Assembly (NCBI GenBank): GCA_937891845.1
Contig: CALATP010000049.1
Location: 103,743 to 167,742 of the forward strand
Direction: 5' to 3'
Source of the DNA: an uncultured Porphyromonadaceae bacterium
Lineage (GTDB): Bacteria; Bacteroidota; Bacteroidia; Bacteroidales; Barnesiellaceae_A
DNA length: 64,000 nucleotides
Shown piece by piece: positions 38,466 through 42,174 of the stretch. A program made the position numbers and the translations under genes. The notes below the pieces were generated by a model that had not been told where the DNA came from, did not search any database, and worked only from the letters and a program-made list of their open reading frames with translations. Position 1 is the stretch's first letter, and every line of letters starts with the position of its first letter.

Positions 38466-38930
38466 CTACCCTTCCCACATATCCCAAATGGCTTTTACTT
38501 GCTTGAAACCATTTTCCAATTTTATCATATTTACGACCATAAATTTATAAAACTCATCCCATTGAGCCTGACGATGAATATCAAGCCCCGACTGCATACA
38601 ATAAATACGAATAACTCTTTTACCGCAATCTTTTACATAATTCACATCCCATATAAGTGATTCTTCAAAATCACACTCAAGCAAACTCTTGTTTTCTAAA
38701 AAATGGTTATATAATTTTTCTTGTTGTTCTTCACTACGATGATCAATTTCCAAAATTACATAAGCGCCATCACGAGTTGCATCAAACTTCATTGCTACAC
38801 CTTTCATTCGTGTATTATGCAGCATAAATTTATGCTTGCGAGACTGTAATTCGGGATATTGCTCGGCATACGCACTGAGTCCATCCCAAAATCTTTTTTT
38901 CAATTCTCTTACTTCGTCTTTTGAATACAT
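38466..38930 (-). CDS. DUF4268-like protein
   Basis: 154 aa. The N-terminal RFWDGL...-type motif and the size fit my recollection of DUF4268. There are no catalytic motifs. Confidence 0.5.
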   Translation of the reverse strand: MYSKDEVRELKKRFWDGLSAYAEQYPELQSRKHKFMLHNTRMKGVAMKFDATRDGAYVILEIDHRSEEQQEKLYNHFLENKSLLECDFEESLIWDVNYVKDCGKRVIRIYCMQSGLDIHRQAQWDEFYKFMVVNMIKLENGFKQVKAIWDMWEG

Positions 38931-39267: not shown

Positions 39268-39636
39268 ATGCGCGCAATTATTACCATCGTTCTGCTTATT
39301 ATATCAAATGTTTTTATGACATTTGCTTGGTATGGACACCTCAAACTACAAGAAACAAAAGTTGTAAGCAACTGGCCATTGTATGGCGTAATATTACTTT
39401 CGTGGGGTATTGCGCTATTTGAATACTGCTTCCAAGTACCGGCCAATCGTATGGGTTTCAGAGAGAATGGAGGTCCTTTCTCATTGATGCAACTCAAAAT
39501 CATTCAAGAAGTTATAACACTGGTGGTATTTACAATCTTTTCTACCCTACTCTTTAAAGGCGAGTCGTTGCAATGGAATCACATCGCAGCATTCTTATGC
39601 TTGATAGGTGCTGTTTACTTTGTTTTTATGAAGTAA
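39268..39636 (+). CDS. DMT-superfamily small membrane protein (DUF486 family)
   Basis: 122 aa with four hydrophobic helices. The FAWYGHLK and FEYCFQVPANR motifs are characteristic of DUF486. Confidence 0.75.
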   Translation: MRAIITIVLLIISNVFMTFAWYGHLKLQETKVVSNWPLYGVILLSWGIALFEYCFQVPANRMGFRENGGPFSLMQLKIIQEVITLVVFTIFSTLLFKGESLQWNHIAAFLCLIGAVYFVFMK

Positions 39637-39842
39637 TACTTTCGTCGTTATCGTCGTCGTATCCCATTGTAATCTTGACCTTATCACCGGGATTGAAAAT
39701 GATGTCTCTCTCAGGTAATACGGTACCATCGGTATTGTCTCTAGTCAGATAAGGATTAAGCGGGAGAGTTATTTCGGCTGTATCGAAAATATCGGTAACA
39801 GATTTTTTGATAGTTACGGCAGACGGTTTGATAGAACGCACA
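39626..39842 (-). pseudogene. ~70-codon fragment resembling the N-terminus of a phage late-control-D / baseplate-hub (gpD-like) protein
   Basis: Translation (V)RSIKPSAVTIKKSVTDIFDTAEITLPLNPYLTRDNTDGTVLPERDIIFNPGDKVKITMGYDDDNDESITS*. The pattern vtD..f..a.i.L......DG.v.lP......G..v.i.lGy recalls the P2 gpD N-terminus (from memory). There is no ATG, and the stop overlaps the DMT gene end. Confidence 0.3.
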
Positions 39843-39884
39843 AAAGAAATTAAAAGGTTATTAAATAAAAAGTTGCTGAAAAAT

Positions 39885-39915
39885 TTTGTAGTTAGGAAAA
39901 ATGGTTGTACATTTG
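39885..39915 (+). promoter_or_regulatory. Bacteroides-type promoter (orphan, inside the islet)
   Basis: TTTG at 39885-39888 and TACATTTG at 39908-39915, with a 19-bp spacer. Confidence 0.45.
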
Positions 39916-39919
39916 TAGT

Positions 39920-39991
39920 GCTCTGTGCGGGGTGGGGGCTGTTGCCTATCCTCGCTGTTGAGGAGTAATGGGAGGGAGACCTCCCTTTTTT
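39920..39991 (+). ncRNA. candidate ~70-nt GC-rich small RNA, convergent with and abutting the nuclease-like ORF
   Basis: Transcript model CUCUGUGCGGGGUGGGGGCUGUUGCCUAUCCUCGCUGUUGAGGAGUAAUGGGAGGGAGACCUCCCUUUUUU. The terminator is GGGAGG-GAGA-CCUCCC followed by U6. The heptamer GCUGUUG occurs twice (39938-39944 and 39954-39960) in potential hairpin loops. Confidence 0.35.
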
Positions 39992-39992
39992 A

Positions 39993-40685
39993 TTACCTCC
40001 ACCTTGAGCAGTCGAATGTGTGTAATTCGTCATCAACAAGTACATATATATACTCTATGTAATTTGTTTTTTTCTCGTGTGTTAAAAAATTATTAAGATT
40101 CGTCCATCCTAATTTAAGTTTGTCTTCATCCCAGCCGGTGGCATTGGGTATGTATAAAAACAAGCAATTTTCTCTATCTCCAGTTTTGTGATAGTATCTA
40201 GGAAGTTGTCTATTTTTGGTATTAAGAGCATTTCTGTAACCGTTATGCTCGAAATTTACCGGTATTTCTGTTATGGTTTTAATATCCATAACCTTTCCAT
40301 TTATTAAGGCATCCAAGGCTACAACAACATTGTTGTCCTCTCCTATTATATCTTCGGGCAGTAAGATGCAAGAGTGTCCGTTGTTATAAAGCCAATTTTG
40401 CACCCTTTTTTCGCATAGTTTTCCGAAGTCATTTTTTTCTGCCTTGTTGTGTCCTATATGCGTCGCTTTCATACCACCCTTTGCATTGATTTTGACATCT
40501 TTGTAATCGGGGTTGTTCTTATACTCCTTATAAAGTTGTTTGTTAACAATAGAATTTGCCGATAAACACACATAGCAATCGCCACGGCTACCTCTAGCCA
40601 GAGCCATTAGTTTTTTGCCTATATTGACAAAAGGGCAGGAAGTGCAGTTCTTGGGAAAGTAAGGGTGATGGTCGTTGAATAACAC
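39993..40685 (-). CDS. orphan ORF: Cys4 zinc-ribbon-like N-terminus plus PD-(D/E)xK-like nuclease core; possibly a 5'-truncated toxin cassette
   Basis: 230 codons from a GTG, with the frame open a further 34 codons upstream (to 40787) without an ATG. Contains C-x2-C...C-x2-C (NCTSCP...GDCYVC). Also contains helix-E (LCEKRV), VVALDAL, and VMDIKT (D...DxK, coded at ~40281-40328). I found no TAnnTTTG promoter. Confidence 0.45.
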   Translation of the reverse strand: MLFNDHHPYFPKNCTSCPFVNIGKKLMALARGSRGDCYVCLSANSIVNKQLYKEYKNNPDYKDVKINAKGGMKATHIGHNKAEKNDFGKLCEKRVQNWLYNNGHSCILLPEDIIGEDNNVVVALDALINGKVMDIKTITEIPVNFEHNGYRNALNTKNRQLPRYYHKTGDRENCLFLYIPNATGWDEDKLKLGWTNLNNFLTHEKKTNYIEYIYVLVDDELHTFDCSRWR

Positions 40686-40887
40686 TCCGTCCTTTCCGGG
40701 ATTGTTGTCGAGTCCCGGTGCGGGTGAGTTTTTGGCATCACCGATGGGTATAGTAGGGATATCGGTAGGAGGCAGGTCGGTAAAGAATCAAAGTGGAGGA
40801 TATAAATATCTTATTGCAACTTTTTCATCACTACATTACTATTATTAATAAGAAAAGTAGTAAATTTGCACAAAATAATGCCTTACA

Positions 40888-42174
40888 ATGAATACCTCAG
40901 AGAGAAACCAAATTGTCAACCTCGTTAAGCACGAAGTTGTACCCGCTATCGGTTGTACCGAACCCATAGCAGTAGCCTTGTGTGTTGCATACGCAACAGA
41001 AACCTTGGGATGTCGTCCTGAAAAAATAGACGTATTTTTAAGTGCCAACGTATTGAAAAATGCGATGGGCGTGGGAATACCCGGAACAGGAATGATAGGA
41101 TTGCCTATTGCAATTGCTCTAGGCGCACTTATCGGAAAAACCGAATATCAGCTTGAAGTACTTAAAGATTGTAACCCCGACGAGGTAGAACGGGGCAAAA
41201 AGATGATTGAAAGTAATTGCATTAACATCAAGCTCAAGGAAGGAATTACCGAGAAGTTGTATATTGAGGTTACTTGTCAAGCCAACGGACATAAAGCCAC
41301 TGCTACTATTGCCGGCACACACACCAATGTGATTTACCTGGCATACGATAATGACGTGCGCGTGAGTAAGTCAGCTTCATCGGCCGAGGCTACAAATGAA
41401 GATACTGTCAATCTTACGATGAAACGAGTGTGGGATTTTGCTACAACAGCACCACTAGAAGAAATAGATTTCATACTGGAATCGGCTCGCCTCAATAAAG
41501 CCGCCGCAGAATTTTCGTTCAAAGGCAACTATGGACACTGCCTCGGCAATACAATGAAGGGTAAACTCGAACAAGCCATAATGGGTAACAATACTTTTAC
41601 ACACGTACTATCATACACATCTGCCGCTTGTGATGCACGTATGGCCGGTGCTATGGTTCCTGTTATGAGTAACTCGGGAAGTGGCAACCAAGGTATTGCA
41701 GCAACTATGCCTGTGGTAATATTTGCCGAAGATAACAGAAACAGTAAAGAGCAACTTACTCGCGCTCTTATGCTCAGTCACCTTACTACTATCTACATTA
41801 AGCAAACACTAGGTCGTTTGTCGGCTTTGTGTGGTTGTGTAGTTGCCACAACAGGCGCAAGTTGCGGTATTACTTACCTTATGGGTGGTGATTATACCAA
41901 TATTACATACGCTGTAAAAAATATGATAGCCAACCTCACCGGTATGATATGCGATGGTGCAAAACCCAGTTGTGCGCTGAAGATAACTGGAAGTGTTGCC
42001 AACTGTATGATGGCGGCTATGCTTGCAATGGAGGGTCGCTATGTAACGGCTCTGGAAGGAATTATAGATGAAGACGTAGATAAATGCATACGTAACCTCA
42101 CTCGCATTGGAGCACAAGGTATGAACGAAACCGATGCATTGGTATTGGACATAATGACTCACAAAAGTTGCTAA
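40888..42174 (+). CDS. UPF0597 family protein (serine dehydratase alpha-like / L-cysteine desulfidase-like)
   Basis: 428 aa. VVPAIGCTEPIA N-terminal motif, a SGSGNQG loop, and ICDGAKPSCALK. A TAAATTTG -7 box lies upstream. Confidence 0.8.
   Translation: MNTSERNQIVNLVKHEVVPAIGCTEPIAVALCVAYATETLGCRPEKIDVFLSANVLKNAMGVGIPGTGMIGLPIAIALGALIGKTEYQLEVLKDCNPDEVERGKKMIESNCINIKLKEGITEKLYIEVTCQANGHKATATIAGTHTNVIYLAYDNDVRVSKSASSAEATNEDTVNLTMKRVWDFATTAPLEEIDFILESARLNKAAAEFSFKGNYGHCLGNTMKGKLEQAIMGNNTFTHVLSYTSAACDARMAGAMVPVMSNSGSGNQGIAATMPVVIFAEDNRNSKEQLTRALMLSHLTTIYIKQTLGRLSALCGCVVATTGASCGITYLMGGDYTNITYAVKNMIANLTGMICDGAKPSCALKITGSVANCMMAAMLAMEGRYVTALEGIIDEDVDKCIRNLTRIGAQGMNETDALVLDIMTHKSC

Follow-up and report, generated by a model that had tools for sequence, protein, structure and literature searches.

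The window analysed here is a stretch of 64,000 nucleotides (nt) from contig CALATP010000049.1 of an uncultured Porphyromonadaceae bacterium. Its minus strand carries an open reading frame (ORF) at 39993..40685 that encodes 230 amino acids (aa) when counted from a GTG, and the frame stays open upstream to a stop codon at 40788-40790, giving an extended frame of 264 aa to which all residue numbers below refer. A sequence-only reading of this DNA had described the same open frame, which we recovered, and had regarded the GTG at 40685 as its sole start; the latter claim is refuted by an in-frame ATG at 40607 (M61, MALARG...), from which public gene callers start the 204-aa products P0002 and P0193. 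The two CxxC pairs 19 residues apart that had been pointed out are C48/C51 and C71/C74, and the further elements were recovered in the order described, as FGKLCEKRVQNWL (E126), SCILLPE (E145), VVVALDAL (D159) and VMDIKT (D168 and K170). These motifs exceed chance, given the conservation of the acidic residues and cysteines in homologues. As the results below show, the ORF descends from a phage MuF-toxin gene, and it has a polymorphic tip with conserved acidic residues.

When approximately 5.8 billion proteins were searched, we found P0001 (447 aa), which covers 99% of the frame at 98% identity and in addition carries an N-terminal Phage_Mu_F domain (PF04233; E 4.6e-6, 27.8 bits, slightly below the cut-off of 29.6). 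The sequence-only reading had called for a search for longer proteins with a matching C-terminus, and P0001, with Phage_Mu_F in front, is such a protein. The matches of homologues to the ORF reached E 4e-179. At the DNA level, the P0001 gene (contig L007) and the window were approximately 99% identical over approximately 815 nt, from 40781 to just beyond the stop codon, and similarity was absent upstream of 40781. Since homology to the intact gene begins this abruptly, the ORF is the 3' 789 nt of a longer gene that is broken in the middle of its linker. The fragment occupies 39993..40781 on the minus strand (262 codons and the stop, with in-frame starts at GTG 40685 and ATG 40607) and corresponds to residues 186-447 of P0001. 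Many homologues of 420-460 aa shared a common N-terminus and the linker and Cys4 region (65-73% identity) and then continued into at least five unrelated C-termini, the divergence point lying immediately before the second CxxC. The extension of P0001, the abrupt start of homology at 40781 and the divergent C-termini bear out the proposal of a 5'-truncated polymorphic-toxin module. Its carrier had been given as either a polymorphic toxin or a phage polyvalent protein; the truncated tip stands, and the carrier can be narrowed to a phage MuF minor head protein.

In the phage contigs with genes for full-length homologues of 420-462 aa (L005, L017-L021 and L087-L089), Portal_Mu was always encoded directly upstream of the homologue, and the same contigs encoded small and large terminase, Mu_Gp36, a Mu-like protease, DUF3164, a helix-turn-helix (HTH) repressor, AAA_22 (MuB-like) and a 677-aa putative transposase without a Pfam match. 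The gene order was Portal_Mu, MuF-toxin, an optional 70-aa ORF and a 332-aa gene, the product of which gave a weak PHROG baseplate-hub match (phrog_4930, E 1.4e-3). The nearest annotated phages were Bacteroides phage p00 (Hankyphage) and its relatives, whose 'Mu F-like' or 'minor head protein' was approximately 45% identical at residues 1-227. There was no match when the region was compared with GenBank phages by blastn or when viral contigs were scanned with P0001.

The short basic ORF between the MuF and 332-aa genes (70-73 aa, ...SRSPRKLSRYATLPRGYKPPIIVKPPKPLR...) was found in L001 (6769-6990), L017 (11471-11683) and L087 (7483-7698), which carry differing toxin types; in L004 and L019 the toxin gene is followed by the 332-aa gene without an ORF in between. 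We considered the 73-aa ORF as a candidate immunity gene and rejected it: being common to phages with different toxins, it is not toxin-specific. A small toxin-specific immunity ORF was not found downstream of the MuF-toxin genes in the phage contigs compared.

The toxin domain comprises residues 75-264 (39996..40565, minus strand) and consists of an N-terminal helix and a His-bearing hairpin (H110 and H113), followed by a PD-(D/E)xK-type alpha-beta-beta-beta-alpha-beta core. A profile search of 1.84 billion cluster representatives gave 506 relatives at E <= 1e-3. The domain was situated at the C-terminus in every relative examined, and 31 of 47 long family members contained Phage_Mu_F at E <= 1e-3. 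Conservation was counted over 85 family members. E126 and G137 were present in all of them, E145 in 83, H113 in 81 and both H110 and Q194 in 79; position 159 was Asp in 81 and Glu in three, and position 168 was Asp in 74 and Glu in 11. K191 was found in 54 members. The lysine of the D-x-K signature was variable (45 K, 25 R and 12 A), so that of this signature, proposed in the sequence-only reading, the acidic position 168 held among the homologues and K170 did not. K191 and Q194 on the next helix may stand in for K170 where it is absent. The candidate catalytic codons are E126 (40410-40412), E145 (40353-40355), D159 (40311-40313), D168 (40284-40286), K170 (40278-40280) and Q194 (40206-40208), with K191 as a further candidate.

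A first AlphaFold2 (AF2) model of the entire 264-aa frame had a predicted local distance difference test score (pLDDT) of 71, and Foldseek with that model was uninformative. When the tip was modelled with the 85-sequence alignment, pLDDT rose to 92.9, the conserved residues lay on a helix-strand-strand-strand-helix-strand core, and the four elements noted earlier mapped to the helix-strand-strand-strand part of that core. Foldseek of the tip model against the PDB gave nothing significant; the best matches (E 0.1-0.7) were mostly PD-(D/E)xK enzymes (MGME1, R2 endonuclease, BstEII, RecE and XisH). Against the viral predicted structures of BFVD there were seven matches at E <= 1e-3, from 2.5e-5 to 7.6e-4. 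They were phage 'minor capsid proteins' and a MuF-fusion protein, together with a 'tRNA nuclease CdiA C-terminal domain-containing protein' (E 7.8e-5) and a 'CDI toxin-like protein' (E 6.1e-5); PD-(D/E)xK and Mrr nucleases ranked next. Comparison of the type A/B tips with PF18451-positive tips by hhalign gave a probability of 95.5% (E 1.6e-8), and among relatives P0035 scored 42 bits against PF18451 and P0016 24.8 bits, just below the cut-off. A profile of the tip matched only bromodomains among PDB sequences, and these matches were rejected as spurious. With the fragment alone, searches of Pfam, NCBIfam and PDB sequences gave nothing beyond a sub-threshold CdiA_C match. The weak CdiA_C match, the hhalign and BFVD results and the conserved acidic residues uphold the earlier assignment of a restriction-endonuclease-fold tip, and the profile and model comparisons support the view that the tip is a nuclease domain of the PD-(D/E)xK type and a remote relative of CdiA-CT (PF18451).

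Upstream of the toxin domain lies a Pro/Gly/Asp-rich linker (TDLPPTDIP...LDNNPGKDGVLFNDHHPYFP; 40653..40781, minus strand), which forms part of the invariant pre-toxin region of this MuF lineage. Its residues L26, N28, N29, P30, G31, D33, F37 and H41-P45 were at least 90% conserved among 22 homologues, and the linker region was 45% identical to the Hankyphage p00 MuF-like protein. The low pLDDT of residues 3-45 suggests that the linker is probably flexible. Many genomes match residues 3-43 only, which makes the linker either a widespread module joined to other tips or a part of other elements as well. Among such matches are L060-L080 (e.g. Phocaeicola plebeius DSM 17135 and Bacteroides finegoldii JCM 13345; approximately 61% identity), and the matching stretch in these cultured Bacteroides and Phocaeicola genomes is the linker itself, PTDIP...LDNNPGKDG...HPYFP.

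The Cys4 element follows the linker (C48-x2-C51, 19 residues, C71-x2-C74; 40566..40646, minus strand) and is likewise part of the pre-toxin region. In the 22 homologues, which have differing toxin types, C71 and C74 were invariant and C48 and C51 at least 90% conserved. Of 60 linker-bearing proteins, 49 had the element, with a modal spacer of 19, and it was missing from some proteins having the same nuclease. Since it is shared across differing tips and missing from some proteins with the same nuclease, it belongs to the pre-toxin region and is dispensable for the nuclease. The combination of Cys4 motif and nuclease described in the sequence-only reading therefore holds for the conservation of the four cysteines, and does not hold for the motif as a part of the nuclease. 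The boundary between the conserved and variable parts of the toxin falls inside the element, just ahead of the second CxxC. The element is a probable small zinc-binding module; AF2 did not model its fold confidently, with helices instead of hairpins at a pLDDT of 50-58.

Contigs encoding an identical DMT_6 protein, the product of the gene next to the fragment, provided seven further versions of the interval. The 5' junction (FF[T/A]DLPPTD...) was identical in every version that retains the MuF fragment, L013 being without that part, and the 3' junction (...GYDDDNDESITS and a stop codon) was common to all seven sister loci. The toxin parts differed. Type A was intact in the window, L008 and L014 and frameshifted in L010; type B was intact in L009 and frameshifted in L012; L011 had an intact type C together with an extra 164-aa ORF; and in L013 the toxin part was deleted. 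The first approximately 180 nt were 99-100% identical among all alleles and to L007, and divergence began from approximately codons 62-65. The core of type C was 94% identical to that of phage L087, as compared with 76-82% for the flanks.

The 164-aa ORF of L011 lies between the toxin tip and the hub-gene fragment (approximately 965-1460 of the 1754-nt reverse-complemented interval) and gave a weak DUF6495 match (E 2e-3). As an immunity gene of allele C it was rejected, since it is absent from L087, the nearest type-C phage. We also rejected L013 as an ancestral empty site: the final 20 nt of the 73-aa ORF are still present in it, and it is, for that reason, a deletion derivative. At its deletion joint (approximately 125-145 of the reverse-complemented interval) there is a tandem duplication GATTCTTT-GATTCTTT with TTTGC microhomology, which points to illegitimate recombination or replication slippage. 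Synonymous to non-synonymous counts among the type-A copies were 1:5, 5:7 and 5:4, so the substitutions look near-neutral, and the gene-call cluster contained truncated products of 77, 98, 115 and 136 aa. The simplest reading of these alignments is one ancestral acquisition, after which the centre would have been replaced repeatedly by phage recombination alongside ordinary decay.

As judged by tblastn and phage gene order, the relic as a whole extends over 39650..40781 on the minus strand and is a contiguous internal piece, truncated at both ends, of the genome of a Mu-like (Hankyphage-type) phage. It is 1.13 kb long and is flanked by the plus-strand genes DMT_6 (39268-39636) and a member of the SDH_alpha family (40888-42174). 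When all phage ORFs were compared with the 64-kb window by tblastn, the matches were confined to 40781-40023 and 39844-39650, and other phage genes, including the portal and a full-length MuF locus, were not found. At the 5' junction (40781..40782, minus strand), phage homology starts from 40781 (ACCGACCTG...), and the DNA upstream is the host intergenic or promoter region of the divergent gene at 40888.

On the 3' side, 39844-39650 encodes residues 23-87 of the 332-aa protein of L019 and was 75% identical to the L017 and L019 proteins by tblastn. The relic thus retains the first approximately 65 remaining codons of the next phage gene, a 5' fragment (39650..39841, minus strand) that breaks off after ...MGYDDD and whose start was removed by a deletion. 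The deletion site (39841..39842, minus strand) was located by alignment with sister strain L001, in which the 286 bp missing from the window contain the 73-aa ORF along with the codon where the 332-aa gene fragment starts. The deletion is specific to the strain lineage of the window, and L012 has the same deletion junction. The sequence-only reading had found no immunity-like ORF 3' of the toxin; this is correct within the window, but the DNA in question is more phage sequence carrying the 286-bp deletion.

Just 3' of the toxin stop codon is a GC-rich hairpin (GGGAGG-TCTC-CCTCCC, 39970..39985). The near-identity with L007 stops at the hairpin because contig L007 ends there. Since a T-run follows it on the plus strand, the hairpin scores as a terminator for transcription from the DMT_6 side and not for the toxin fragment.

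Taken together, the ORF is probably a pseudogene-like 3' relic of a Hankyphage-type MuF gene that has been stranded with the start of the next phage gene and repeatedly overwritten by recombination. In the intact phage, the 420-460-aa protein would be built into the capsid beside the portal via its N-terminal MuF domain and would probably be ejected with the phage DNA, its C-terminus serving as a swappable toxin. The toxin of the window allele is predicted to be a metal-dependent PD-(D/E)xK nuclease of the CdiA-CT (Bp1026b tRNase-like) superfamily, which may cut host nucleic acid early in infection. The lack of a toxin-specific immunity ORF fits an effector whose synthesis is confined to late lytic growth and whose target is the next host. 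The chromosomal fragment cannot be packaged or delivered, because the MuF domain, the portal and all other phage genes are gone, and it is most likely inert, not a working gene. It is eroding by point changes, frameshifts and deletions, and infecting relatives would also overwrite it repeatedly by homologous recombination, with the conserved pre-toxin region on one side and the phage DNA downstream of the tip on the other as arms. Overwriting by infecting phages would account for the different toxin tips carried by strains with identical junctions.

Several observations weigh against this interpretation. Both the window and four other strains have an unbroken frame, and in-frame ATG and GTG starts are present, so that expression is possible. 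The synonymous and non-synonymous counts given above are too small for a real test of their rate ratio (dN/dS). The window frame falls below the Pfam threshold for CdiA_C (PF18451; E 0.023, 15.3 as against 26.6 bits), and no solved structure matches the nuclease fold significantly (E 0.1 at best in the PDB). Nor does the interpretation account for the arrival of an internal phage segment between two intact host genes.

The same alleles could be read as an orphan cassette with a role of its own, a silent reservoir with which incoming Hankyphage-type phages recombine, in both directions, so as to switch their capsid toxin. The conserved region of approximately 180-290 nt before the tip and the approximately 190-250 nt of the next phage gene would make suitable homology arms, a phage gene matching the window allele at 99% identity is known, and three toxin alleles occupy one scar with identical junctions, from which it follows that exchange from phage to chromosome, at least, has happened. 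However, transfer from relic to phage is not in evidence, no selection on the relic is visible among the frameshifts, deletions and near-neutral changes, an obvious host benefit is absent, and passive gene conversion accounts for the allele diversity equally well, so we consider a reservoir role unlikely. If it were true, host chromosomes would diversify phage-delivered effectors, and the locus would be a phage counterpart of orphan contact-dependent inhibition (CDI) and Rhs modules.

It is more doubtful still that the fragment has been domesticated as a stand-alone nuclease translated from ATG 40607 or GTG 40685 that serves the host, perhaps in abortive infection or as a toxin-type effector. 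The frame of 204/230 aa is unbroken and keeps all conserved acidic residues, and approximately 100 of the 147 family representatives that were newly listed have fewer than 350 aa, showing that short forms are common in databases; many of these, however, are likely calls at contig ends or on relics. The fragment begins mid-linker, no immunity or antitoxin partner was found at the locus, known defence families were unmatched, and sister strains hold frameshifted or deleted copies. The decay of the locus in sister strains also makes unlikely the stand-alone 26-kDa nuclease that the sequence-only reading had offered as an alternative. Strong Pfam or NCBIfam matches are absent for the fragment alone, as they would be for a chance ORF with fortuitous motifs; such an ORF, or a part of an active prophage, has practically no likelihood and is refuted by homologues at E 4e-179, by the 506 cluster representatives and by the absence of other phage genes from the window.

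The identification as a relic of a phage head-toxin gene places the parent gene among known systems. MuF polymorphic toxins of temperate phages have been described (Jamet et al. 2017), mainly in Firmicutes in that survey, and the CdiA-CT Bp1026b-type nuclease (cd13442) is already among the MuF toxin domains listed (PMC5576092). MuF-effector fusions have also been placed among the 'polyvalent proteins' (Iyer et al. 2017, PMC5512222), and MuF/gp7-type proteins, present in few copies in the capsid at the portal, are thought to exit with the DNA and deliver the fused effector (PMC5576092; PMC5512222). Like these toxins, the parent has an N-terminal MuF domain, is encoded by a portal-adjacent head-module gene of a temperate phage and combines a conserved N-terminus with interchangeable C-termini (at least five types, three of them at the relic itself). 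Unlike in that group, the hosts here are Bacteroidales and the phages are Mu-like and transposable, a toxin-specific small immunity ORF was not found 3' of the gene, and the window copy is a chromosomal relic without a MuF domain or an adjoining portal gene. Since its homology starts at residue 186 of P0001 and the MuF domain is absent, the window copy is a fragment of a MuF-toxin member and not a member.

In its PD-(D/E)xK-like core the toxin domain resembles the CdiA-CT Bp1026b type (PF18451/cd13442; PDB 4G6V): helix 1 bears a Glu, Asp and (D/E)-x-K sit on neighbouring strands, with the lysine variable among homologues as described above, and the helix after them bears K...Q. The D159-D168 spacing of 9 equals that of D214 and D223 in Bp1026b. 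PDB entry 4G6V was not among the significant Foldseek or hidden Markov model (HMM) matches of the domain. In contrast with CdiA-CT, the domain carries an extra subdomain made of the N-terminal helix and His-hairpin (H110 and H113 conserved), and its parent is a phage capsid protein and not a filament of two-partner secretion (type V secretion system, T5SS).

Hankyphage is a transposable temperate phage (PMC12135933). Its p00 'Mu F-like' protein (BK010646.1) shares with the parent the N-terminal 227 residues at approximately 45% identity, including the LxNNPGKDG...HPY linker, as well as the position of the MuF gene after the portal gene in a Mu-like transposable temperate genome, but its tip is a papain-fold Gln_amidase (PF15644) and it lacks the Cys4 element. 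This 479-aa protein (L090 3432-4871; BK010646.1 11824-13263) is a MuF toxin itself, with Phage_Mu_F and a C-terminal Gln_amidase above threshold (E 1.1e-9), and the Gln_amidase tip is not mentioned in the Hankyphage literature searched. Orphan cdiA-CT/cdiI and rhs-CT/rhsI modules are similar to the relic in that a 5'-truncated tip retains a conserved upstream stretch and tips at one locus depend on the strain; they differ in that the relic is not situated 3' of a full-length locus, has no immunity gene, is phage-derived and is decaying.

These results warrant annotating the ORF as a gene fragment of phage origin (MuF-toxin 3' remnant), in place of a hypothetical protein or a host nuclease. More widely, capsid-borne toxins form a polymorphic set in the Hankyphage-type transposable phages of gut Bacteroidales: the tips include the CdiA-CT-like nuclease, the papain-fold deamidase and two or more unassigned types. 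Since the nuclease subfamily, with approximately 500 clusters at 50% identity, scores under the Pfam threshold, a dedicated model would improve its annotation. The 1.1-kb scar with its three toxin alleles is a natural record of recombination between phage and prophage remnant and could help to follow encounters of phages with their hosts in metagenomes. Modestly new are the toxin lineage in Hankyphage-type transposable phages of Bacteroidales, the divergent nuclease subfamily, which has an additional His-bearing subdomain and is missed by Pfam, and the chromosomal scar with alternative toxin tips across strains.

Two further C-terminal types of approximately 170 aa were seen on the same MuF N-terminus, one in P0009, P0010, P0012, P0014, P0024 and P0029 and the other in P0005, P0008, P0013, P0017, P0022 and P0023; both are without a Pfam match, and their likeness to PBECR or barnase-like RNases was judged by eye only. 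PADLOC did not match the locus to a defence system, Rfam did not find an RNA family in the window, and a sigma-70 promoter scan of the locus is not informative for Bacteroidota. The DUF4268 gene of the window (38466-38930) is intact, and in L009 (3200-3664) it is split into calls of 72 and 68 aa, which suggests that it has been pseudogenised in that strain.

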